The position numbers and the translations under genes are program-made. A DNA stretch of 64,000 bases from Parcubacteria group bacterium GW2011_GWA2_42_14 (GTDB lineage: Bacteria; Patescibacteriota; Minisyncoccia; Sungbacterales; GWA2-42-14), in assembly GCA_000998135.1 (NCBI GenBank), contig LCCV01000003.1:6392-70391 (forward strand), in the 5' to 3' direction. Below the pieces are notes generated by a model. The model made no database searches, was not told where the DNA came from, and saw nothing but the letters and a program-made list of their open reading frames with translations. The number at the start of each line of letters is the position of its first letter. Position 1 is the first letter of the stretch. Shown in pieces: positions 9,710-60,070 of the stretch.

Positions 9710-10636
9710 TCATTTAACCAAAACATCCCAGTGGCTTCCTTCGTCTGCGTAAACAGCTCCGGTCGGGCTTCTGTATTGTTTGGCGCCATCGCTACGGGTG
9801 CCGATAAAGCTGTAATTTGACGTAATGTATGAGTTCAGCGCCGGGTTTTTGCCAGCGTCAAATTTAAAACCTGCCGGATGGCTGAAAGGGCCGGTTGCGT
9901 GGCTGTTGATTTCAGAGCCGCCGGTAATGTTAATAGAGCAACCGCACTTTTGTTTAATGTTATATATTTCTTCAATTGTCGCGGGTCTAAGTCCGCCAAC
10001 ATTAGTACAGCCGCTTTGCGTTCCAGTATATGGATCGCATTTCGGATTATTTATGGTAATTCCTTTGCTTGTTAAGGAGGCGCGTATCGTAGCTTCATTG
10101 GCTTCTGCCGAAGGGCATATGGTAGATCCTTCTATGGGGCAGGAACCTACGGCCGTGCAAAGTCCAAATCCTGGTTTTGTTGATGAACAAAAACAAAGAC
10201 TTGTTCCGCAGTTCCAGGTGGTAAGGGGCGGAGGCGGTGGAGGAGGCGGAGGCGGTGGAGGAGGAGGCGGGGGCGGAGGCGGTGGAGGAGGAGGCGGAGG
10301 AGGAGGAGGCTCAACGACTTCAACCGGTACGCAATATGTTTCTATAAAATTCGGCAAGATTAATAGAACAGTTAAGATAAGAATAGTATAAAAAATAATT
10401 TTGCGGGTTTTGGTAATGGTGTTTGGATTTCCGCTGCCGGTAATATATAGAAAAGCGGCGGCCAGTATCATAATGACAGCGATTGCGGCTCCGATTATTC
10501 CCGATGCTTTTGCCAATATCAGGAGTAGTACGCATATTTGTGATGTGGTGAAAGGATTTTGGATTATTTGTCCGAGAACGGGCAATGGAAAAATTAACGT
10601 TGATATGCCGATGATAATTAGTGATGGATAGATCAT
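9710..10636 (-). CDS. Membrane protein: TrbC/VirB2-like pilin N-terminus, ~40-residue polyproline stalk and a Cys-rich C-terminal domain
   Basis: The hydrophobic N-terminus ...AKASGIIGAAIAVIMILAAAFLYITG resembles a VirB2 two-helix pilin. It is followed by P(x~40) and a domain with many Cys. Confidence 0.5.
   Translation of the reverse strand: MIYPSLIIIGISTLIFPLPVLGQIIQNPFTTSQICVLLLILAKASGIIGAAIAVIMILAAAFLYITGSGNPNTITKTRKIIFYTILILTVLLILPNFIETYCVPVEVVEPPPPPPPPPPPPPPPPPPPPPPPPPPPPLTTWNCGTSLCFCSSTKPGFGLCTAVGSCPIEGSTICPSAEANEATIRASLTSKGITINNPKCDPYTGTQSGCTNVGGLRPATIEEIYNIKQKCGCSINITGGSEINSHATGPFSHPAGFKFDAGKNPALNSYITSNYSFIGTRSDGAKQYRSPTGAVYADEGSHWDVLVK
10214..10310 (-). repeat. low-complexity (ggN)n / (ccN)n tract encoding polyproline
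   Basis: ggcggaggcggtggaggagg... run on the + strand. It encodes P-runs in the minus-strand protein. Confidence 0.9.
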
Positions 10637-17164: not shown

Positions 17165-17234
17165 AGACAAGTGACATGTGACAAGTGACAAGGTAGCATA
17201 AACCATGTCTCATGTCCCATGTTTCATGTCACAA
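17164..17234. repeat. heptamer tandem repeats (gacaagt / gacatgt ... catgtct catgtcc catgttt catgtca) between rpmF and nusB
   Basis: Clear 7-nt periodicity. It overlaps the annotated nusB start. Confidence 0.8.
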
Positions 17235-18582: not shown

Positions 18583-18659
18583 TTAACCAACAACTGACAA
18601 CTAATAACCGACAACGCGCTGTTGTGAGTTGTTAGTTGTAAGTTATAAGTAACCAACGG
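18583..18659. repeat. 7-nt-periodic palindromic element (ccaacaa ctgacaa ... ttgtgag ttgttag ttgtaag) downstream of rnc
   Basis: The two arms are inverted-complementary. A close paralog lies at 40191-40260, downstream of atpB. Confidence 0.8.
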
Positions 18660-20672: not shown

Positions 20673-20730
20673 GATTACCGCTTGCCTGTGAGGGCGAAAA
20701 ATGATAGTTTTATTTAAGATACGTTTATAA

Positions 20731-20808
20731 AACATGAAACATGTAACATGGAACATAGCCTTTTTAGTCAATGATTCATGATTCATGATTCATGATTCAT
20801 GATTCATG
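20731..20808. repeat. heptamer tandem repeats (aacatga aacatgt aacatgg aacatag ... tgattca x5) upstream of smc
   Basis: The array ends exactly at the smc ATG. Confidence 0.85.
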
Positions 20809-23001
20809 AAGTTAAAGCGTTTAGAACTTTCTGGTTTCAAGTCGTTCGCCCGAACGACTGTTTTGGAATTTCCGGTTTCCACAACCGCCATTGTCGGTCC
20901 GAACGGCTCGGGAAAATCAAATGTGTCGGAAGGAATACGTTGGGTATTGGGAGAGCAGTCAATGAAGTCGCTTCGCGGAAAAAGGGGGGAAGATTTGATT
21001 TGGAACGGTTCTCCGACTCTTCCGCGTATGGGCAAGGGTCAGGTTACCCTTATTTTTGACAATAAGGATGGGAAAATTTCATTGGATTTTGATGAGGTTT
21101 CTATTGGACGAAAGATTTTTCGCGATGGAATTAACGAATATTATTTGAATGATTCGCAAGTGCGCCTTAAGGATGTTGTGGAACTGATCGCTCGCATGGG
21201 TCTTGGCGAAATAAAACATAATATGATCGGACAAGGCGAGGTTGACAGGATTTTGCTTTCCACGCCGCGAGAACGCCGGGAATTGATTGAAGAAGCAATC
21301 GGCCTTAAGGTTTACCAGATAAAAAAAGCGGAAGCAGAAAGAAAACTCGGCGCTTCCAAAGAAAATTTAAAGGATGTTGAATCGTTAATACGCGAATTGA
21401 CCCCGCATTTGAAATTTTTAAAAGAGCAGGCTAAAAAAGCTGAGTCGCGCCAGCTCGTTTCGCGGGAATTGAACGCGCTTCAGAAATATTATTTTCAGAA
21501 AGGTTTTGAGGAAATGAGCTCGCTTTTCAAGAAATTTGAAGCGGAGCGCTCTCCTTACGAGAAAAAAATAAAGGCGATTGAAGAAGAAATTCAGGAGATG
21601 TTCCAGAAAATACGCTCCCTTGAAGGAAAATCAAAAGATAACGAAGAAGTAAGGGAATTGCGTTCCAGAATTTCCCAATTGGAAAAGGAAGAGCGTGATT
21701 TATCGCGCGACCTCGGCCGGATCGAGGGCAGGATTGAAGCGGAAAAGGCCAAGCCCAAAACCGTAACTAGGATAATTGACCTTGGTTATGTGAAAGAAGC
21801 GGTTTTGCGTTTTATCGTCTTTTTGGAGGAATCGGAAAAAGATAATGAGCTGGAATCGCTTCGAAGAAGGGTGGCCAATCTTAAAGATAATATCGGCAGA
21901 TTTCTTAAGGATTTGGAAAAGGGTTCGGTTGAGGAGGAGCGGAAAATTGAAAGCGAGATTGAAGAATTGTCCGCACGTGAGCAAAAATTGCAGGGTGAAA
22001 TGGAAAAAATCAGCCAGGGTTTGCTCTCTGCCAAAGACGCGCTTTACGGCAAAGAAAGGGATTACGCGTCGCTCCAGCAGGAGTTAAGGCAGTCGGATAA
22101 GCTGATTCGCGACAAAGAAGAAGAAAAAACCATGCTTCGCGAGTCCTTAAACCGCACCGCCTTTGAGGAAGAAAAAGTCATGCTTAAACAGGAGGAGCTG
22201 GAAAAAGAACTCGTATTTCTAGGATTAACCCATGAGGATATTGGCGGAGAGCTCGACCCGGCCATAAGCTATGAAAATTTGCAGGAAGCGCGCCGTCGCA
22301 TTGAAAGATTGAGAGCGCGCCTTGAAGAAATCGGGGGAATTGACGAATCCGTTGTTAAGGAATATCAGGAAACCGAAGCGCGTTATACTTTTTTGCAGAA
22401 AGAAAATGAAGACATTAAAAAGGCCATTGATTCAACCGAAGAATTGCTTGAAACCCTTGAAAAAACATTGAAAGAAAATTTTCATGAAGGTTTTTCAAAA
22501 ATCAGGGATGAATTTCACAATTATTTCCGGGTCATCTTCGGAGGGGGCGGAGCAAAATTGAAATTGGTTGAATACGGAAGGAAGAAGTCCGCCGAAGAAT
22601 TGCAGGAGTTGGAAGAGCTGGGAGAAGAAATAGAAGAGCCGTATGAAGGAATTGATATTGAAGTTGATTTGCCCAAAAAACGAATTAAATCCCTGGCTAT
22701 GCTTTCGGGTGGCGAGCGCTCCCTTTGTTCCATCGCTTTTCTTTTTGCCGTAACCGCGGTAAATCCGCCGCCATTTTTATTTTTGGATGAAACGGACGCG
22801 GCTCTGGACGAAGCCAATTCCAAAAGATACGCCGAAATTTTAAGGGAATTGTCCAAAAAAACCCAGCTTATTATCGTTACTCATAACCGCGAAACCATGC
22901 GCGTGGCCGGGGTTTTGTACGGCATTACCATGGGAGATGACGCGGTATCTAAGCTCCTTTCACTCAAACTTGAAGAAGCCGAGGTTTATACAAATAGATA
23001 A
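20806..23001 (+). CDS. smc: SMC-family chromosome segregation ATPase (short form, 731 aa)
   Basis: The N-terminus FKSF...IVGPNGSGKSNV is a Walker A. A long coiled coil follows. The C-terminus has LSGGERSLCSIAFLFA and LDETDAALD. Confidence 0.7.
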   Translation: MKLKRLELSGFKSFARTTVLEFPVSTTAIVGPNGSGKSNVSEGIRWVLGEQSMKSLRGKRGEDLIWNGSPTLPRMGKGQVTLIFDNKDGKISLDFDEVSIGRKIFRDGINEYYLNDSQVRLKDVVELIARMGLGEIKHNMIGQGEVDRILLSTPRERRELIEEAIGLKVYQIKKAEAERKLGASKENLKDVESLIRELTPHLKFLKEQAKKAESRQLVSRELNALQKYYFQKGFEEMSSLFKKFEAERSPYEKKIKAIEEEIQEMFQKIRSLEGKSKDNEEVRELRSRISQLEKEERDLSRDLGRIEGRIEAEKAKPKTVTRIIDLGYVKEAVLRFIVFLEESEKDNELESLRRRVANLKDNIGRFLKDLEKGSVEEERKIESEIEELSAREQKLQGEMEKISQGLLSAKDALYGKERDYASLQQELRQSDKLIRDKEEEKTMLRESLNRTAFEEEKVMLKQEELEKELVFLGLTHEDIGGELDPAISYENLQEARRRIERLRARLEEIGGIDESVVKEYQETEARYTFLQKENEDIKKAIDSTEELLETLEKTLKENFHEGFSKIRDEFHNYFRVIFGGGGAKLKLVEYGRKKSAEELQELEELGEEIEEPYEGIDIEVDLPKKRIKSLAMLSGGERSLCSIAFLFAVTAVNPPPFLFLDETDAALDEANSKRYAEILRELSKKTQLIIVTHNRETMRVAGVLYGITMGDDAVSKLLSLKLEEAEVYTNR

Positions 23002-26141: not shown

Positions 26142-26450
26142 ATGCTAATGCTTAAATTTCAACGTGTTGGGCGGACTAATGACCCGGCTTTCAGGATTGT
26201 GGTTACGGAAAAGAAGTCAAAGCCGAAATCGGGAGAACATGAGATTCTAGGGTCATTTCATCCCAAAACCAAAGCAACGAACCTGAAAAAGGAAAGGATT
26301 TTGTATTGGCTTTCGGTTGGGGCAAAAGCTACCCCGAGAGTGCATAATCTTTTGGTTTCAAATAAAGTGGTTGAAGGGAAGAAAATACCGATAAAAATAA
26401 AATCCCAAATCCCAAATCCCAAATCCCAAACAAATCCCAAATCAGAATGA
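26142..26450 (+). CDS. rpsP: 30S ribosomal protein S16 (bS16) with a repeat-encoded C-terminal tail
   Basis: KFQRVGRTNDPAFRIVV...ILYWLSVGAKATPRV is the bS16 core. The tail IKSQIPNPKSQTNPKSE is read through the aaatccc repeat. Confidence 0.85.
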   Translation: MLMLKFQRVGRTNDPAFRIVVTEKKSKPKSGEHEILGSFHPKTKATNLKKERILYWLSVGAKATPRVHNLLVSNKVVEGKKIPIKIKSQIPNPKSQTNPKSE

Positions 26451-26535
26451 CCAAAATTCAAAACACGTGTTTTGGATTTTGAATTTGGAAATTTGATATT
26501 ATTTGGAATTTGGTGCTTGGTGCTTGGAATTTAGT
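26398..26535. repeat. aaatccc x5 array plus caaaacacgtgttttg palindrome plus ttggaat/ggtgcttgg repeats, between rpsP and the wzy-like gene
   Basis: The tandem aaatccc runs are followed by a perfect 16-nt palindrome. Confidence 0.8.
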
Positions 26536-36510: not shown

Positions 36511-37470
36511 TTGTCTAAATTACGCCTTTTATATATGATACGCTTGATGACTGATAAAAGTTCAAAAATAATAGTAACTGGCGGTGCAGGTTTTATCGGC
36601 TCTAATCTCGTTGATGGGTTAGTTAACGAGGGGTATTCAAACATTCATGTTATTGATAATCTTGTCGCGGGAAAAGAGGAGTATGTAAATCCTTCAGCTC
36701 AACTTCATAAACTTGATATCAGGGATTTTGACGCGATTGTTCCTATTTTTCAAGGCGCCCGTTTTGTGTTTCATCTTGCTGCTCTTCCGCGGGTTCAGCC
36801 GTCCATTCTTGACCCGCGCACAACACACGACGTTAATGTTACCGGAACGCTTAATGTCTTTCTTGCCGCCCGCGATGGCGGAGTAAGGCGCGTTATATAT
36901 TCGGCATCTTCTTCGGCCTACGGCGACCAGAAAACATTGCCTCTTAAAGAAGAAATGGAGGCCTGTCCTCAAAGCCCCTATGGACTTCAGAAGTATGAAG
37001 GAGAGCTTCTTGCCCGTCTTTTTTCGGAGTTATACGGCCTTGAGACAGTGTCGCTTAGGTATTTTAACGTGTATGGTCCTCGCGCCGCCTCAGACGGGGC
37101 GTATGCATTAGTAATCGCCATATTTCTTAATCAGCGAAAAAAAGGCGAACCAATGACTATTGTTCCTGATGGAACACAGTCGCGCGATTATACGCATGTC
37201 AGCGATGTTGTCCGCGCTAATATTCTTGCGGCAACATCTTCCAATGTCGGCAAGGGAGAAGTTATTAATATCGGGGGAGGACATAATCGTACGGTGTTGG
37301 AAGTAGCCAAGTTTATCGGTGGCCCTACGGTTTTTATTGAACATAGGATTGAGCCTAAACATACGTTTGCGGACATTTCCCTCGCTAAAAATCTTTTGGG
37401 CTGGGAGCCGCAAGTAAAATTTGAAGAGGGGATTCAAGAGTTGAAAAAGATGTATGATTTGACGGATTAA
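36511..37470 (+). CDS. NAD-dependent epimerase/dehydratase (UDP-sugar 4-epimerase-like)
   Basis: IIVTGGAGFIGSNLV... SDR-type Rossmann fold with YxxxK context. The true start is probably the internal Met near 36550. Confidence 0.85.
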   Translation: MSKLRLLYMIRLMTDKSSKIIVTGGAGFIGSNLVDGLVNEGYSNIHVIDNLVAGKEEYVNPSAQLHKLDIRDFDAIVPIFQGARFVFHLAALPRVQPSILDPRTTHDVNVTGTLNVFLAARDGGVRRVIYSASSSAYGDQKTLPLKEEMEACPQSPYGLQKYEGELLARLFSELYGLETVSLRYFNVYGPRAASDGAYALVIAIFLNQRKKGEPMTIVPDGTQSRDYTHVSDVVRANILAATSSNVGKGEVINIGGGHNRTVLEVAKFIGGPTVFIEHRIEPKHTFADISLAKNLLGWEPQVKFEEGIQELKKMYDLTD

Positions 37471-37511
37471 TATTTTTTTACCACACTCGCTCGCTAGTTA
37501 GGATTTTTCTA

Positions 37512-37565
37512 AAATTTATCTAAATTTACATTGAACGATCGGTCAATAGTGATTTAGATAAAAAA
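37512..37565. promoter_or_regulatory. palindromic operator-like element (tttatctaaat...TTGAACGatcgGTCAA...atttagataaa), left copy
   Basis: Near-perfect inverted repeats. A second copy lies at 38153-38210, on the other side of the regulator gene. Confidence 0.5.
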
Positions 37566-37566
37566 T

Positions 37567-38103
37567 ATGGAATTAAAACATCTTATACTTCAAAAAATTG
37601 CTGAATTGGGCGAGGTGATGCTTAACGGTTTTTTCCCGTCCAAATACCCGGAAGCAAGATTATGGCGTAATCTGCTCGGAGCCGAGTCCTCCTATAAATT
37701 TTCCAAACCGACTTTTTCCGCGATACTGACTCAATTACGGGAGGAGGGATTTGTTAAGCGGAAGAACACAAGAAAGAAATCTGAGTGGCATATTACGTCC
37801 AAGGGTTTAAAGCATCTTCAGTTTAAAAAGGCGTTCAATGCCAATGCGATAATGGTAAAAAAAGACGGTATTGCGCGCATTGTGTGTTTTGATATCCCGG
37901 AGCGGGAAAGGAAGAAACGGCGCTGGATTCGGGAAGAGTTATTAAGTTTGGGGTACCAGCCGCTTCAAAAAAGCGTCTGGCTGGGATTTTCTCCAATATC
38001 GGAAGATTTTTTTAAAGATCTGGAGTTGCTTTCATTGCGAAGTTATATCCATATTTTTAGCGTGGATAAAAAAGGCACTATTGAAAAGACGTGGCAGGGG
38101 TAG
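37567..38103 (+). CDS. wHTH plus Cas2/VapD-like-fold regulator (PaaX-family-like)
   Basis: N-terminal wHTH (SAILTQLREEGFVKRK). The C-terminal RIVCFDIPERERKKRRWIREELLSLGYQPLQKSVWL resembles the PaaX_C / Cas2-like core. Confidence 0.4.
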   Translation: MELKHLILQKIAELGEVMLNGFFPSKYPEARLWRNLLGAESSYKFSKPTFSAILTQLREEGFVKRKNTRKKSEWHITSKGLKHLQFKKAFNANAIMVKKDGIARIVCFDIPERERKKRRWIREELLSLGYQPLQKSVWLGFSPISEDFFKDLELLSLRSYIHIFSVDKKGTIEKTWQG

Positions 38104-38152
38104 TAGACGTGAAAGTAAAAAATTCCCTTTTTATGCTTCTTTCCTTGTTTAG

Positions 38153-38210
38153 AAAATTTATCTAAATTGCTATTGAACGACCGTTCAAGGTAAATTTAGA
38201 TAAATTTTTT
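38153..38210. promoter_or_regulatory. palindromic operator-like element, right copy (TTGAACGacCGTTCAA core flanked by tttatctaaat / atttagataaa)
   Basis: Perfect 7+7 inverted repeat with a 2-nt spacer, embedded in a larger AT-rich palindrome. Confidence 0.5.
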
Positions 38211-38395
38211 ACCAGTTTTTCCTGGATAATAATCGATACCGGAATCATTGTGTTAGTTTCTTGAAGTCGCCCCGTCGGGTTTGCATTTTAAGCTGGTTTT
38301 TGTTATAAAGGTTATGCCGTTGGCTGGGGTCAGCTTGACGGGTGAGTTCTTTGACGGTGTGTCCCTCCCTGTAGAATTGAGGGGCAAAACAAATC

Positions 38396-39394
38396 TTGTC
38401 CGCCAGGGCGGACATGACAGCCTGCCCGGCTGTAGAAAGAGGCAAAATGTCCGGCACGAACGACCTTATGCGCATTTCGGCTATTGTCCAGGATGTTTTT
38501 GAACCGCTTCATACTGGCATAAGTTTGGTTTTCACCATCGCGCCAAATGGCAAAGTGTGGGGGAAACGGCTTGATGTAAAAAGCACAAGCAGAGATGTTG
38601 AGCTTGAAATTTTTTCCGGCACCGATGACGGGTATGTGCTTTGGAAATTAGACGGGGGCAACCGGGTCCGGCGTTACCCCAATGTTTTGACTATCGAACA
38701 AAGGCGTAAGGTTGATATGATAATGTTTGAGGAGCGAACGATAACTCATCTTTTGAGCACGATCGTTGTGCTGGCCCCTATAAATCTTCCCGACAATTAT
38801 TTGCCGTCAATGCGGCCATATTTACTTTTTCGGGGTCTGCATGAGCAACCTGCCTTACGGCGAAATATTTTTGCGCATGTTGTTGATTGTTCAGATGATT
38901 CTTCTCCGTTGGCGGGGAGTAAGGGCGGCTTATGGTCAATTCAATATTGTGATAAAAGATTTTCTTTCGTCTTTTTCGATCCCAGAGAACAAGATGAATA
39001 CTTGCAAGGAAGAAAGTTAGAGAGGAATGAATATTCTATTGCTAATGTATGTTTGCATCAGCGCGCGGAGAATAATAAGACAATTTTTCCACGGCATGAA
39101 TTTTATGCAGTACAAGCGCAAAATGGCGAATTCGACCTTTTTCGTTCCGGCGCGTTTCAGAGACAGAAGCTCTTTTTACGGCCCGTTGTGCGCGTAACAT
39201 ATGGCGGGCATGATTTCTTTGATTATTTCAAGGTGGATGACGTTTTGCTGCTTCTTGAAGAATTCAGGACAACAGAAACGGATTCGGAGTTTACGTGGAC
39301 TATCGCGGTTGCTCAAAATAAGTTTATACGGAACATATTGCGTTTGCACTCAAATAGCAAAACTCTTTTTCAGGCGTTAAAAATTCAAAAATAA
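38396..39394 (+). CDS. hypothetical protein (332 aa; GC-rich 5' region)
   Basis: Long ORF with no recognisable motif. It lies immediately downstream of the right operator-like palindrome. Confidence 0.4.
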   Translation: MSARADMTACPAVERGKMSGTNDLMRISAIVQDVFEPLHTGISLVFTIAPNGKVWGKRLDVKSTSRDVELEIFSGTDDGYVLWKLDGGNRVRRYPNVLTIEQRRKVDMIMFEERTITHLLSTIVVLAPINLPDNYLPSMRPYLLFRGLHEQPALRRNIFAHVVDCSDDSSPLAGSKGGLWSIQYCDKRFSFVFFDPREQDEYLQGRKLERNEYSIANVCLHQRAENNKTIFPRHEFYAVQAQNGEFDLFRSGAFQRQKLFLRPVVRVTYGGHDFFDYFKVDDVLLLLEEFRTTETDSEFTWTIAVAQNKFIRNILRLHSNSKTLFQALKIQK

Positions 39395-39448: not shown

Positions 39449-40189
39449 ATGTTAGAAATATCAATTGGGGCGGAAAAAATATTTGAAGTGGCAGGGTTTC
39501 CTATTACTAATACGCTTTTGACGACCTGGATGGTGGTCGGTTTTTTTGTTGTCGTAAGCCAGTTATTGGTTAGGCGGCTTCAGTTGGTTCCGGCCGGCAT
39601 CCAAAGTGTTTTTGAAGCGGTCATTGAAGGGGTGCTCGGCATGATGGACGGTGTTTTGGGAGAGCGGAAAAGGTCAGAAAAATATTTTCCCTTGATCGCA
39701 ACAATCTTTCTTTTTGTCATATCTTCCAATTGGTTCGGTATTTTTCCCGGGTTCGGGTCAATCGGTTTTAATGAAATTTATGAAGGAAATGAAGTGTTTA
39801 TCCCATTTTTTCGGTCCGGGGCGGCAGATCTTAATTTTACTCTTGCTCTTGCCATCATTTCCGTTATTTCGGTGCAGTTTTTGGGAATCGCGGCGATAGG
39901 GTTTTTCAAGCATGCAAAGAAGTATTTCACCTTTAAAAACCCCATTGAAACCTTTGTTGGGCTACTTGAATTTATCTCCGAAATTGCTAAAATGATTTCG
40001 TTCTCGTTTCGGCTGTTTGGGAACGTTTTTGCCGGGGAGGTTCTTCTTATTATAATGGGGTTTTTGGTGCCGTATTTCGTTCCTGTTCCATTCTTGTTTC
40101 TTGAGTTATTTGTCGGTTTTATCCAGGCGCTGGTGTTTGCCATGCTGACGCTTGTGTTTCTCGGCATGGCGGTATCGGAGCATCATTAA
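39449..40189 (+). CDS. atpB: F0F1 ATP synthase subunit a
   Basis: ...RLFGNVFAGEVLL...LELFVGFIQALVFAMLTLVFLG is the C-terminal signature of subunit a. Confidence 0.9.
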   Translation: MLEISIGAEKIFEVAGFPITNTLLTTWMVVGFFVVVSQLLVRRLQLVPAGIQSVFEAVIEGVLGMMDGVLGERKRSEKYFPLIATIFLFVISSNWFGIFPGFGSIGFNEIYEGNEVFIPFFRSGAADLNFTLALAIISVISVQFLGIAAIGFFKHAKKYFTFKNPIETFVGLLEFISEIAKMISFSFRLFGNVFAGEVLLIIMGFLVPYFVPVPFLFLELFVGFIQALVFAMLTLVFLGMAVSEHH

Positions 40190-40190
40190 G

Positions 40191-40260
40191 TTAACCAACA
40201 ACCGATAACCAACAACTCACAACAGGACTGTTGTAAGTTGTAAGTTATAAGTTGTAAGTC
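40191..40260. repeat. 7-nt-periodic palindromic element (acaaccg ataacca acaactc ... gtaagtt gtaagtt ataagtt), paralog of 18583-18659
   Basis: Shares ttaaccaacaac...ctgttgt.agttgt.agttgtaagtt ataagt with the rnc-downstream copy. Confidence 0.8.
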
Positions 40261-40266
40261 AATAAT

Positions 40267-40494
40267 ATGGAGTCAGAATCAATGAAACTTTTGGCAACGG
40301 CCATTGTTATGGCGGTTGGGACCGTCGGTCCGGCGCTTGCCATCGGCATGCTTGCCTCAAAAGGCCTTCAGGCAATAGGTCGGAATCCGGAAGCATCGGG
40401 AAAAATTCAGACGGCGATGATTTTAGCAATTGCTTTTGCCGAGGCCATTGCGATATACGCGCTGGTAGTGGCCCTTATTATAAAGTTTGTGTAG
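40267..40494 (+). CDS. atpE: F0F1 ATP synthase subunit c
   Basis: A two-helix proteolipid: LAIGMLASKGLQAIGRNPEASGKIQTAMILAIAFAEAIAIYALVVALII. Confidence 0.9.
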   Translation: MESESMKLLATAIVMAVGTVGPALAIGMLASKGLQAIGRNPEASGKIQTAMILAIAFAEAIAIYALVVALIIKFV

Positions 40495-41062
40495 AGACAA
40501 GAGACATGAGACAAGAGACATGGAAGTTGAAACATGTCGCATGTCGCATGTCGCATGTCGCATGTCAGAATTAATTCACCAATTTGGCATTGAATGGAAA
40601 ATTCTGGTCGCCCAGATAGTTAATTTTTTTATTTTGCTTGTTATTCTGAAGAAATTCGCGTATGGCCCGATTTTAAATATTTTAAAGGAGCGAAGGAAAA
40701 AAATTGAAGAAGGGCTTTTGGCCGCGGAAGAATCGCAAAAAAAGCTTGGTGAGGCCGAGAAAGAAAAAGAGGGGATTTTGACAGATGCCAGAAAAGAATC
40801 GATCGGTATCATCCAAAAATCGGAAGTAACGGCCAGAGAAAAAGAAAGCCAAATTTTAACCGAGGCAGGCAAAAAAGCCGAAGGAATTTTCGTTGAAGAA
40901 AAAGCAAAAATTCACGAGGAAAAGCTAAAAATGAAAGAAGACATATACAAAGAATTTTCGGTATTTTTGAAAGAAGCATTAGCAAAAATTGTTGAAAAGT
41001 CGCCGCAAGATTTGGACGATAATTTAATACAAGAAACTTTGCGGGAATTGAAGGAAATGTAA
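40487..41062 (+). CDS. atpF: F0F1 ATP synthase subunit b (the annotated N-terminus over-extends through a heptamer repeat; likely start near 40565, MSELIHQF...)
   Basis: A TM helix (ILVAQIVNFFILLVIL) is followed by a long charged coiled coil. The first ~26 codons are encoded by gagacaa / catgtcg repeats. Confidence 0.7.
   Translation: MCRDKRHETRDMEVETCRMSHVACRMSELIHQFGIEWKILVAQIVNFFILLVILKKFAYGPILNILKERRKKIEEGLLAAEESQKKLGEAEKEKEGILTDARKESIGIIQKSEVTAREKESQILTEAGKKAEGIFVEEKAKIHEEKLKMKEDIYKEFSVFLKEALAKIVEKSPQDLDDNLIQETLRELKEM
40494..40567. repeat. heptamer tandem repeats (gagacaa gagacat x2; catgtcg x4) between atpE and atpF
   Basis: 7-nt periodicity. It generates an artefactual N-terminal extension on the atpF ORF. 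Confidence 0.85.
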
Positions 41063-45373: not shown

Positions 45374-46381
45374 ATGCCTTCAGTAAAATCAATAAAACAG
45401 CGAATAAAATCAGTAAAAAATACCCGCCAGATTACCAAGGCGATGGAAGTTGTTTCTGCAACGAAAATGCGAAAATCGCAGCAATTTGCTATTGAAGGCA
45501 GGCCTTATGCCCTTGCCGCCATGGAGATGCTGGGAAATGTTTTGGCAAGAACAAGGTACAGACCGCCGCTTTTACGAAAACGAGAAATTAAACAGGCGGC
45601 GTTAGTTGTGGTAACTTCTGATAAGGGCCTTGCTGGCGCATTTAATTCCAATGTTTTGCGAAAAGCCGAAAAATGGATTTTAGAAAATAAACAAAATTAT
45701 CCTGTGGATTTAGTAACGGTAGGCAGGAAATCGCGTGATTATTTCCAAAACAGAAAAGAAAATGTTGTAAAGGAATTTATTGGTTTCGGCGATTTTATTG
45801 AGCCGAATCAGACAAAGCCGTTATCTGATTTTCTTACGCGCGGATTTTTAAAAAAGCAATGGGATTTAGTTGAAATAATTTATACTAATTTTCGCTCCAC
45901 TTTAAAACAAGAAGTAAAAATGGTTCAGCTTTTTCCGGTTGATTTGGAAAAAATAAAAGATACAATTGTGGGTATAACCCCAGAATATGGAAGATTTGCA
46001 GTTAATAGTGAAAATCCCAAATCCCAAAATTCGCCCCCTCGGCGAATTCCAGGGCTTCGCCCGTCGGAAGCAAATACTTTTGCTTCCGACCCAAATTCCA
46101 AACAAATTCAAAATTATCTTTATGAGTATAAGTTTGAGCCGTCGCCAAAAGCTATTCTAAATTCACTCATTCCTCATTTGCTCGAAATGCAAATTTTTCA
46201 TATGATACTTGAGTCAAATGCTTCGGAACATTCAGCTCGGATGGTGGCCATGAAAAACGCTTCGGAAAACGCAGCAGACATTATTCAGGAGTTGACTTTG
46301 CAATATAACAAGTCAAGGCAGGCGGGAATTACGCGTGAATTAACGGAAATAACTGCTGGTAAAGAGGCATTGGAGGTGTAA
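45374..46381 (+). CDS. atpG: F0F1 ATP synthase subunit gamma (with a ~35-aa in-frame repeat-element insertion). The ORF track starts at 45347, inside the right TIR
   Basis: The N-terminus MPSVKSIKQRIKSVKNTRQITKAMEVVSATKMRK and the C-terminus ...MQIFHMILESNASEHSARMVAMKNASENAADIIQELTLQYNKSRQAGITRELTEI match gamma. The insertion ENPKSQNSPPRRIPGLRPSEANTFASDPNSKQIQN is an inserted element. Confidence 0.85.
   Translation: MPSVKSIKQRIKSVKNTRQITKAMEVVSATKMRKSQQFAIEGRPYALAAMEMLGNVLARTRYRPPLLRKREIKQAALVVVTSDKGLAGAFNSNVLRKAEKWILENKQNYPVDLVTVGRKSRDYFQNRKENVVKEFIGFGDFIEPNQTKPLSDFLTRGFLKKQWDLVEIIYTNFRSTLKQEVKMVQLFPVDLEKIKDTIVGITPEYGRFAVNSENPKSQNSPPRRIPGLRPSEANTFASDPNSKQIQNYLYEYKFEPSPKAILNSLIPHLLEMQIFHMILESNASEHSARMVAMKNASENAADIIQELTLQYNKSRQAGITRELTEITAGKEALEV
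46011..46112 (+). repeat. composite hairpin repeat element (aaatccc repeats plus aattcgcc-ccctc-ggcgaatt plus ggaagc...gcttcc) inside atpG; a second copy lies at ~58540-58640
   Basis: The same element, reverse-complemented, occurs intergenically at 58540-58640. The encoded peptides are similar (RRIPGLRPSEANTFASDPN vs RQIPGLRPSEAKLFASDPN). Confidence 0.8.
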
Positions 46382-50759: not shown

Positions 50760-52111
50760 TGAAGGAAATATATTTAGATCACGCCGCTACAACTTATTTA
50801 GACCCGCGGGTAAAAGAAGCGATGGATCCGTATTGGGAATTGGAATATGGAAATCCATCCAGTTTATATCGGGTTGGCCGTAGGGCAAAAGATGTTCTTG
50901 ATGGAGCGCGTGTTTCGGTTGCAAAAATTTTAAACTGCCGTTCAGATGAAATTATTTTTACCGGCGGAGGAACCGAAGCGATTAATTTAGCGATTTTTGG
51001 TGCGGCAAGGTATTACGGCCAGCCGCAAGATACAAGATACAAGATACAAGATACAAGTTTTCGCGGTCATATTATTACTTCCAAAATTGAACATCACGCG
51101 GTTTTGCATTCAATGGAGGCGCTGGAAAAAGAAGGGTTTGAAGTAACTTATCTTGATGTTGATGAATACGGGTTGGTTAGTCCGGAAGATGTTAGAAAAG
51201 CGTTGCGGCCGGATACTATCTTGGTTTCAATTATGTATGCCAACAATGAGATTGGAACGATTGAGCCCATCGCGGAAATTTCTAAAATTATCAAAAATTT
51301 TCGCGAGGAATTAAGAATTAAGAATCAGGAATTAGGAAAAAGTCCCGAAACCATAATTCATAATTCATCATTCATACTTCCCGTATTCATGACCGACGCC
51401 TGTCAGGCCTCCGGTTCACTGGACATGGATGTTCAAAAATTGGGCGTTGATTTACTCGCCTTCAATGGCTCCAAAATTTACGGCCCGAAAGGAGTTGGGG
51501 CGCTTTATAAAAAAGCATCGGTGCGTTTGAAGCCCTTGATTTACGGCGGGGGACAGGAAAATCAGATGCGTTCCGGTACGGAAAATGTGCCGGGGATTGT
51601 TGGATTAGCTAAAGCGTTTGAATTGGCGCAAGCGGAAAAAGAAAAAGAAAATATCCGTTTAATTGAACTTCGTGATTACTTCACAAGGCGGCTTTTAACG
51701 GAAATTCCAAAAGTCGTTTTGAACGGGCATCCGGCAAAGCGTTTGCCGAATAATATAAATGTTTCAGTTTTGGATATTGAAGGGGAAGCGGTTATTTTGT
51801 ATCTTGACTCAAAAGGAATTTATATTTCTACCGGTTCTGCTTGCACTTCAACCACCCTTGACCCATCGCATGTTATTTTGGCGTTAGGCAAGCCATATGA
51901 ATACGCCCATGGTTCATTAAGATTTACTTTGGGTAAGCGAACAACCAAAGAGGAGCTGGATTATATTATGGAAGTTTTTCCCGGTATTGTTAAAAAACTA
52001 CGCGCAATTTCTCCGGTTCGGATGGAAGTCGGACAAACAAATGTCAGTCATCCCGAGGCCTTTGCCGGACAAGGTTCGAAGATAAAAGTAGGTGGTAAAA
52101 ATTATAAATAA
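50760..52111 (+). CDS. iscS: Cysteine desulfurase (IscS/NifS) carrying in-frame heptamer-repeat insertions
   Basis: IYLDHAATTYLDPRV, SKIYGPKGVGALY and SGTENVPGIVG are present. The annotated start at 50660 is an over-extension; MKEIYLDHAAT begins at 50760. Confidence 0.9.
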
Positions 52112-58460: not shown

Positions 58461-58640
58461 ATTCAAAATTCAAAGCATTAAATCCTAAATAATATAAAAA
58501 TTCAAAACATAAAAAGTAGGTGGTTTTGGATTTTGGCATTTGAATTTATTTGGGTCGGAAGCAAACAGTTTTGCTTCCGACGGGCGAAGTCCGGGAATTT
58601 GCCGAGAGGGCAAATTTTGTGATTTTGAAATTGGGATTTT
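58440..58640. repeat. intergenic copy (reverse orientation) of the hairpin element found inside atpG, preceded by aaattcaaa-type AT repeats
   Basis: ggaagcaaaacagttttgcttcc, cgggcgaagtccgg and aatttgccgagagggcaaatt hairpins match 46030-46095 after reverse complementing. Confidence 0.8.
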
Positions 58641-59921: not shown

Positions 59922-60070
59922 TTTAATAATTTTTAATTTTCCAATTTCCAATTTTCAATAAATTATCCAATTTCTAAATTTCCAAACACGGCGCTTCATA
60001 ATTGAAAATTAAATCATTGAAAATTGATTGAAAATTTATAATTGATAATTGAAAATTCATAAGACTGTTT
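59922..60070. repeat. AT-rich aattttc-caa / ttgaaaatt inverted and tandem repeat array between htrA and rpoB
   Basis: ttttaattttccaatttccaattttcaa ... attgaaaattaaatcattgaaaattgattgaaaattt. A similar aattttcaattttcaattttcaa array lies at 48150-48172. Confidence 0.7.

Follow-up and report, generated by a model that had tools for sequence, protein, structure and literature searches.

The locus and its two palindromes

We analysed a stretch of 64,000 nucleotides of contig LCCV01000003.1 (Parcubacteria group bacterium GW2011_GWA2_42_14, assembly GCA_000998135.1), hereafter the window, which comes from a Candidatus Sungbacteria genome (Candidate Phyla Radiation, CPR, or Patescibacteria). Our subject is a small gene encoding a predicted transcriptional regulator, mini-PaaX, and the two palindromes that bracket it; we refer to the three together as the cassette (table 1). 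The cassette follows a gene for a NAD-dependent epimerase (ending at 37470) and precedes an orphan open reading frame (ORF) and the ATP synthase genes atpB (starting at 39449), atpE and atpF. A sugar transferase gene is also found among the neighbours of the regulator gene.

Both palindromes are composite, with a core placed between two outer arms. The upstream copy reads TTTATCTAAAT-ttaca-TTGAACG-AT-CGGTCAA-tagtg-ATTTAGATAAA and the downstream copy TTTATCTAAAT-tgcta-TTGAACG-AC-CGTTCAA-ggtaa-ATTTAGATAAA, the symmetry of the latter reaching out to 38153-38208. A preliminary description of this DNA, made from the letters alone, had placed two palindromic elements on either side of the regulator gene, which is where we find them. 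It had also credited each with a perfect 7-bp core, which is true of the downstream copy, whereas the upstream one has a mismatch. The two copies are 79% identical when compared directly and 90% identical over 52 nt when one is inverted, and the pair ranks second in length among the inverted pairs of the window. The rest of the window contains no further example of the core pattern (allowing up to two mismatches) or of the exact outer arm. The core pattern taken alone is weak evidence, with 0.4 matches expected and two or more found in 7 of 100 shuffles. Both the composite element and the way in which it is conserved among loci, described below, go far beyond chance.

Table 1. Positions of the cassette and of the features that follow it in the window.
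Feature	Position	Strand	Remarks
Upstream palindrome, predicted operator	37515-37562 (48 bp)	.	dyad between 37538/37539
Outer arms of the upstream copy	37515-37525 and 37552-37562
Core of the upstream copy	37531-37546		TTGAACGATCGGTCAA, one mismatch (CGGTCAA)
Putative promoter inside the upstream palindrome	37531-37560	+	proposed from relatives
-35-like element TTGAAC	37531-37536
-10-like element TAGATA or TTAGAT	37555-37560 or 37554-37559
mini-PaaX regulator gene	37567-38103	+	178 aa
Downstream palindrome, predicted operator	38157-38204 (48 bp)	.	dyad between 38180/38181
Core of the downstream copy	38173-38188		TTGAACGACCGTTCAA, perfect
Spacer, probable vestige of a deleted 204-aa gene	38205-38280		15-nt exact remnant TCCTGGATAATAATC at 38220-38234
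Putative orphan promoter TTGCAT-N17-(TGt)TATAAA	38281-38309	+	proposed; conserved in L084/L092
Conserved 5' leader, ~130 nt	38316-38446	+	alignment of 6 distinct loci
Orphan gene	38447-39394	+	315 aa from ATG 38447; mechanical ORF from TTG 38396, 332 aa

The regulator resembles PaaX and is probably misnamed Cas2

The protein consists of a winged helix-turn-helix (residues 1-95) and a Cas2-like domain (residues ~100-170), the combination that the preliminary description had proposed. The second domain matches Pfam PF20803 (PaaX_M, the central domain of PaaX, which is Cas2-like) over residues 100-173 with an E-value of 2.9e-14 and 53.3 bits for a cutoff of 24. The N-terminus matches only weak winged-helix families in Pfam, the PaaX N-terminal domain of the same database giving no significant match, and PaaX_C, the C-terminal ligand domain, has no match on the regulator, which ends at residue 178. 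An AlphaFold2 model of the monomer (66 homologs in the alignment, mean predicted local distance difference test score, pLDDT, of 84) has a helix-strand-helix-helix-wing topology followed by a beta-alpha-beta-beta-alpha-beta domain. Among solved structures, the best Foldseek match of the model is E. coli PaaX (8a39, E-value 2.3e-5, 174 columns), and the next ones are the winged-helix regulators MarR, MecI and RosR and the PaaX homolog of Jannaschia (3l09). The winged helix of the model and this top match give the protein a predicted DNA-binding fold. Direct comparisons of the family with E. coli PaaX by BLASTP and hhalign produced a weak alignment of the winged helix only; the relationship to PaaX rests on Pfam and Foldseek.

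A search of protein databases retrieved 74 homologs of about 111-197 aa, mostly ~170-195 aa. One of them, P0001, from a Sungbacteria metagenome-assembled genome (MAG), is 99% identical to the window protein and is named 'CRISPR-associated endonuclease Cas2' in GenBank; the same name is given to P0028, which is 57% identical. We trace this name to a marginal and partial match to TIGR01573 (Cas2), which scores 27.2 for a cutoff of 24.5 and covers residues 104-138 only, i.e. 36 of the 96 positions of the model. The Cas2 models of PADLOC likewise touch the Cas2-like segment. The 64-kb window contains no CRISPR-like direct-repeat array and the genes adjacent to the regulator are not cas genes. The name most likely arose as an artefact of annotation and probably reflects a systematic misannotation in CPR genomes, where it could inflate the counts of CRISPR components. 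Some Cas2-type features are nevertheless present in the family. The Cas2-type aspartate, identified by eye as D109 in the segment RIVCFDIPERERKKRRWIREELLSLGYQPLQKSVW, is invariant across 66 sequences, whereas E. coli PaaX reads WLLLLSEGLDKSTLADVKKQL at the matching place, with Ser for Asp (by eye, with no computed alignment). By the same kind of reading, the Cas2-type motif FDIPE...R...R is kept in the regulator family and lost in E. coli PaaX.

Two cognate palindromes bracket the gene across related loci

We then compared 79 loci encoding relatives of the regulator (27-71% identity), obtained by scanning one genome per species; 78 of them entered a strict count of palindromes and the 73 with enough flanking sequence a relaxed one. 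The hosts are Sungbacteria, Giovannonibacteria, Nomurabacteria, Wolfebacteria, Jorgensenbacteria, Liptonbacteria, Doudnabacteria, Colwellbacteria and other MAGs of Paceibacteria type. There is one regulator gene per locus and several MAGs have three to four paralogs. The usual layout is a palindrome of 40-48 bp just 5' of the start codon and another just 3' of the stop codon, with a centre that is mostly CGATCG and less often CGGCCG or CGACCG. Under the strict criterion, sites were found on both sides at 54 loci, only upstream at 8, only downstream at 5 and on neither side at 11, which gives an upstream site in 62 and a downstream cognate site in 59 of the 78 loci. Relaxed matching adds around 10 loci and brings the bracketed ones to ~64 of 73. 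In the ~470 kb of these loci, CGATCG-centred palindromes are rare elsewhere and are mostly extra cognate copies, three each before neighbouring genes at L034 and L053, one before frr at L037 and one after recR at L005. The extra copies that precede neighbouring genes imply that in some lineages the regulators also control genes nearby. Hence, the sites track the gene instead of being scattered without relation to it, and the operator-like sites suggested by the preliminary description are tied to a regulator with a DNA-binding fold. No rule governs how the two copies are oriented relative to each other. In the window the inverted orientation is favoured (43 vs 38 of 48), but the 54 bracketed loci comprise 26 direct, 18 inverted and 10 tied pairs.

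The sites have a common anatomy and private arms. Their symmetry profile is bipartite: the four positions next to the dyad (ACGA/TCGT) pair in 0.9-1.0 of the sites, positions 5-11 in ~0.6-0.7 and positions 12-19 again in 0.81-0.97, before the symmetry decays. The centre, ACG-NN-CGT, is nearly invariant over the family. The identity of the outer arms is 83% within a locus, from one copy to the other, and 33% from locus to locus; in 42 of 54 loci, an upstream copy finds its best match in its cognate downstream copy. One example is the comparison of the window with L092, the nearest relative whose whole context is available. The half-sites are TCTAAA/TTTAGA in the former and TCTTAA/TTAAGA in the latter, so that all four changed together, and this difference is a concerted change. 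The 6-bp arms at positions 14-19 are 26 bp apart, and the ~31 bp between arm centres would place both arms on one face of the helix. The divergence of the arms correlates weakly, with no correction for phylogeny, with that of the recognition helix and wing (partial rho of 0.23, against 0.095 for the Cas2-like domain), the top-ranked protein columns being N67, T49 and W74. These relatives form a truncated PaaX-type family, devoid of the ligand domain and expanded in Patescibacteria, whose signature is the enclosure of the gene by two cognate split palindromes with an invariant CG-NN-CG dyad.

The upstream site overlaps a putative promoter

The position of the upstream site relative to the regulator gene is constrained. 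The distance from its dyad to the ATG peaks at 27-28 bp (15 of 62 loci), with a second cluster at 43-52 bp, and the window, at 28 bp, falls within the peak; its site ends 4-5 bp before the ATG. In the class of loci at 27-28 bp (class A), the inner arm reads TTGAC/TTCAC at -8 to -3 and the right outer arm TGnTAAnAT at +13 to +21. The resulting consensus, TTGAC-N17-TGnTAAnAT, corresponds to a -35 element, a 17-bp spacer and an extended -10 element. The locus L092 has TTGAAC-N17-TAAGAT at distance 28. This arrangement suggests that the operator overlaps the promoter of the regulator, from which a leaderless mRNA would start at or near the ATG at 37567, and hence that the gene is autorepressed. 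The promoter-like sequence of the window is poorer than those of its relatives and is missed by a strict scan, which is why this step is drawn from the relatives.

The downstream site belongs to the regulator's own unit

The downstream site is kept beside convergent genes (26 of 30 loci) and beside co-directional ones (31 of 43), i.e. independently of the orientation of the downstream gene. Since it is kept when the neighbour is convergent, we regard it as part of the regulator's own unit and not primarily as an operator of the neighbour. Its dyad often hugs the stop codon (+20 to +27 in 13 of 59 loci) and the two operators are 558-816 bp apart, centre to centre. The downstream site is probably a loop partner of the upstream one and/or a roadblock. 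Bracketing on two sides regardless of the orientation of the neighbours is an unusual layout and, if looping or roadblocking takes place, it would provide compact insulation of an autoregulated gene in tightly packed genomes.

The alternative that survives best takes the downstream palindrome for the operator or promoter of the next gene, in which case the regulator would control itself and its neighbour, here the orphan gene. The 31 loci where the next gene is co-directional would fit such a role, and so would the syntenic groups that have the cassette directly before GH1, lepA, grpE or proS, the promoter-like hexamers that close relatives show both ways within the palindrome, and the operator arrays 5' of neighbouring genes at some loci. 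We nevertheless consider it unlikely. The persistence of the site beside convergent genes argues against it, and there is no preferred distance between the downstream dyad and the next start codon, unlike the narrow peak at the regulator's own gene; for lack of such a peak we rejected the site as a leaderless promoter of the next gene. The downstream neighbours at 67 loci have no function in common and are diverse housekeeping genes, including those for GH1, LepA, GrpE, MiaA, UvrC, UDG and ProRS. The orphan gene of the window is preceded, ~100 bp beyond the palindrome, by a conserved promoter-like element and leader of its own; a 204-aa gene stands between it and the cassette in the close relatives L084 and L092 (the matching interval of L084 being 340-1290), and four distinct loci with orphan homologs (L080, L086, L087 and L090) have no PaaX-like gene nearby. 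Hence, the orphan gene is a neighbour and not the dedicated cargo gene that it had been proposed to be. There may be a minor regulatory link between the two, by regulated read-through or by a rightward start at the downstream site, which would enter the leader of the orphan gene.

Some groups of orthologous cassettes occupy recurrent positions, directly 5' of grpE (L055, L061, L066), of lepA (L019, L020, L028) or of proS (L021, L040). In many bacteria, HrcA occupies the position upstream of grpE. Such positions may indicate the genes controlled by particular paralogs.

A model for the cassette and its alternatives

The account that we favour, with moderate confidence, is that of a PaaX-type repressor of double-stranded DNA that acts as a dimer, represses its own gene through the upstream site and uses the second site as a loop partner or roadblock. 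Comparison between loci gives good support to the operator and autoregulator part of this account. The dimer would consist of the winged helices and a Cas2-like dimerisation domain, with no domain for ligand binding. It would recognise a split palindrome of ~40-48 bp in which the arms, 12-19 bp from the dyad, are about three helical turns apart. The variable arms probably set the specificity through the recognition helix and wing, while the invariant ACG-NN-CGT is probably contacted by a conserved basic surface or helix of the Cas2-like dimer. The Cas2 dimers of the Cas1-Cas2 complex extend along the DNA duplex, and it is by analogy with them that we place the Cas2-like dimer over the centre of the site and the winged helices on its arms. 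Since the inner arm would serve as -35 and the right outer arm as -10 of the upstream site, its occupancy would block the regulator's own promoter. The second site would cooperate by looping out the 0.56-0.82-kb gene and/or by acting as a roadblock to neighbouring transcription, and in the window read-through toward the orphan gene may be under its control as well.

Several observations weigh against this account. The strict sigma-70 consensus scan finds no promoter in either palindrome of the window, where the -10 candidates lack either the A at position 2 or the T at position 6. In distant members of the family the arms are unlike a -10 element, and 45-130 bp separate the site from the start. 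The spacing of the two operators gives no convincing sign of helical phasing (p of 0.04, 0.30 and 0.35 for periods of 10, 10.5 and 11), and looping would need tetramers or higher oligomers. The correlation between protein and arms ignores kinship and carries no significance value, and binding is deduced from comparison between loci. Finally, a pure role in dimerisation leaves the conservation of D109 and E112 unexplained.

In a further alternative, the protein would be a site-specific nuclease, or part of a nucleoprotein switch, and would act at the centres of the palindromes by nicking or cleavage or by closing a protein-held loop that would be a bistable or self-insulating unit. We envisage it because the aspartate of the Cas2 catalytic site and the invariant dyad of CGATCG type are both kept, and we deem it quite improbable. 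If true, the cassette would represent a hitherto undescribed genetic device found throughout the lineage, which has expanded in Patescibacteria to at least three to four private copies in some genomes.

Slimmer still are the chances that the palindromes act as hairpins of RNA or single-stranded DNA, i.e. as a 5' stem-loop and a 3' stem-loop or terminator that the Cas2-like fold binds or cleaves. Relatives of the fold, Cas2 and VapD, include RNases, and such a role would also give meaning to the invariant aspartate. On the + strand, both copies fold into hairpins better than shuffled sequences do (z of -3.5 upstream and -7.6 downstream), a T-run follows the downstream copy, and many distant members have continuous, perfect palindromes of 40-48 bp. 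However, a weak 7-bp spacer makes the symmetry bipartite, unlike that of a continuous stem, and the coding strand has no excess of the mismatches compatible with G-U pairs (upstream 61 GT vs 92 AC, downstream 68 vs 69). We rejected the hairpin on these two grounds. Furthermore, a fixed distance ending 4-5 bp before the ATG fits a -10 element, the geometry agrees with the double-stranded operator of PaaX, and a terminator scan calls neither copy. A search of Rfam (the whole window at the gathering threshold and 37400-38700 at an E-value threshold) returned chance miRNA-like matches on the palindrome only.

A cassette that is or recently was mobile or recombining, with the palindromes as terminal sites and the Cas2-like protein as a nuclease that excises, inverts or homes at CGATCG, is the least credible alternative: the tight bracketing of one gene by two like sites, the several paralogs per genome at different places between housekeeping genes, the invariant Cas2-type aspartate, a 10-nt direct repeat (TTTTTTACCA, at 37474 and 38205) and a gene indel adjoining the downstream site could be read that way, but flanking genes are kept across genomes whose proteins are only ~45-50% identical to that of the window, in the neighbourhoods trmD-cassette-GH1 (L004, L006, L012, L013), cassette-lepA, cassette-grpE and epimerase-cassette (window, L092), with constant orientation and no sign of inversion within syntenic groups. 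The arms differ between paralogs, which excludes recent copies, and no identical copies are dispersed. The direct and inverted arrangements of the two sites are inconsistent across loci, and the arrays of three extra sites before neighbouring genes resemble regulatory operators. The 10-nt repeat is missing from L092, so we discarded it as a target-site duplication and attribute it to chance. There is no transposase or integrase domain in the cassette or nearby, and a pattern scan of 2.9 M viral contigs found no homologs. The idea of a small mobile cassette, raised in the preliminary description, is thus not borne out.

The dimeric PaaX-type repressor that we prefer to these alternatives is of interest because transcriptional regulation is little known in Patescibacteria, whose genomes are small and contain few regulators that can be recognised. 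Every paralog comes with a private site of ~48 bp, present twice, and the rules of specificity can thus be read directly from genomes. The upstream sites also suggest that promoters in these bacteria may be leaderless and embedded in operators.

The orphan gene and its leader

The preliminary description had noted an ORF of 332 aa without a recognisable family, just before the ATP synthase operon. Its place is as stated and no family was found, but the protein is probably shorter. Conservation begins ~10 residues past M18 of the long ORF, and the nucleotides 5' of the gene are conserved in L084, where they are read in another frame. The start is therefore most likely the ATG at 38447, which follows the Shine-Dalgarno sequence AGAAAGAGG. 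The family is rare: searches of 5.8e9 proteins and of 1.84e9 representatives gave 5 homologs and 29 clusters, respectively; the search for related loci with a narrow alignment of the orphan retrieved 5 loci. Searches of Pfam, NCBIfam, PADLOC and the PDB, the latter also by profile, gave no match to the protein, whose AlphaFold2 model, with a pLDDT of 41, is unusable.

The region around the start (38250-38500), described as GC-rich, has a GC content of only 0.48-0.56 and is mostly non-coding leader. The strict scan misses the promoter proposed for the orphan gene, owing to the final A of its -10 element. The leader comprises the motif GTTCTTTGAC, a hairpin with the loop CTGTAGAA and a hairpin ACAGCC/GGCTGT that runs into the Shine-Dalgarno sequence. 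The leaders of the window, L084 (1284-1486), L086, L087, L090 and L080 have in common GTTCTTTGACAGG, a loop similar to CTGTAGAA and the ACAGCC/GGCTGT hairpin. The support for a structured RNA is modest, with one compensatory pair in the last hairpin and a z-score of -0.53 for the minimum free energy, and Rfam has no match to the leader. Read by eye, the 5' motif of the leader is partly complementary to the Shine-Dalgarno region, and the conserved leader of this orphan family is therefore a candidate for a new cis-regulatory RNA. In L092, the order is epimerase, cassette, 204-aa gene, leader and orphan gene, and the window has in place of the 204-aa gene the short spacer listed in table 1.

Other repeats in the window

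The longest inverted pair of the window lies elsewhere; it measures 85 nt (46012-46096 and 58548-58632), is 85% complementary and spans 12.4 kb. Short tandem arrays of period 7, with 3-8 copies, are unusually abundant (~25 sites, e.g. 17166-17230, 18590-18650, 20730-20809, 26400-26527, 40230-40259, 40493-40566, 51026-51057 and 60000-60057). About 17 of the 25 are in intergenic spacers just 5' of genes, including those between atpB and atpE and between atpE and atpF. They often come as two arrays side by side, with units that are partly reverse-complementary, and could form long hairpins with a heptamer periodicity. A repeat of period 9 and of GGAGGCGGN type is found at 10207-10318 on the + strand and might be a glycine-rich coding repeat.

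Comparison with known systems

The literature that we searched contains no paper linking PaaX-like proteins to Cas2 or to Patescibacteria, and none describing a bracketed family of this kind. The closest known system is PaaX, a repressor of paa operons that responds to phenylacetyl-CoA; it likewise combines an N-terminal winged helix with a central domain of Cas2 type (PF20803) and has a long split-palindrome operator. The published operator is TGATTC-N27-GAATCA, and PaaX represses its own expression by promoter occlusion at Px (PMC9493321). In the mini-PaaX sites, arms of 6-8 bp are 22-26 bp apart and their sequence differs; furthermore, these sites have the invariant ACG-NN-CGT centre and bracket the gene on both sides. 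The protein has 178 aa instead of 316, lacks the C-terminal helical domain for phenylacetyl-CoA and scores far below the cutoff of the PaaX equivalog model TIGR02277 (15.7 vs 264.55). A survey from 2026 found that paaX is rarely outside the genomic context of phenylacetate-CoA ligase, PAL (PMC13186573). There are no paa genes near the regulator in the window, and the downstream neighbours at 67 loci are, as described above, housekeeping genes.

The likeness to the Cas2 of CRISPR systems is limited to residues 104-138, which fit the first beta-alpha-beta unit, including the aspartate that ends strand 1. The fusion to a winged helix, the lack of an array in the window and the occurrence in one genome of several paralogs with private palindromes are all unlike Cas2.

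Repressor genes or promoters placed between cognate operators that are some hundreds of bp to a few kb from each other and cooperate by looping are known from cI between OL and OR in lambdoid phages, from O1 and O2 of lac and from OE and OI of gal. The bracketing layout is similar. In mini-PaaX, however, there is a single site on each side, the sites are 0.56-0.82 kb apart and enclose the regulator gene only, they are split palindromes of 48 bp instead of sites of 17-21 bp, and the context here is not that of a phage. A small gene with a ferredoxin-like fold between two palindromes is also reminiscent of REP/RAYT and IS200/IS605 elements, from which the cassette differs by a regulator without HUH or Tyr motifs, by sites that are not dispersed in the window, by arms private to each paralog and by stable, syntenic positions. 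Taken together, the system would work like PaaX but departs from it in several of its defining traits, and it is not a CRISPR Cas2.

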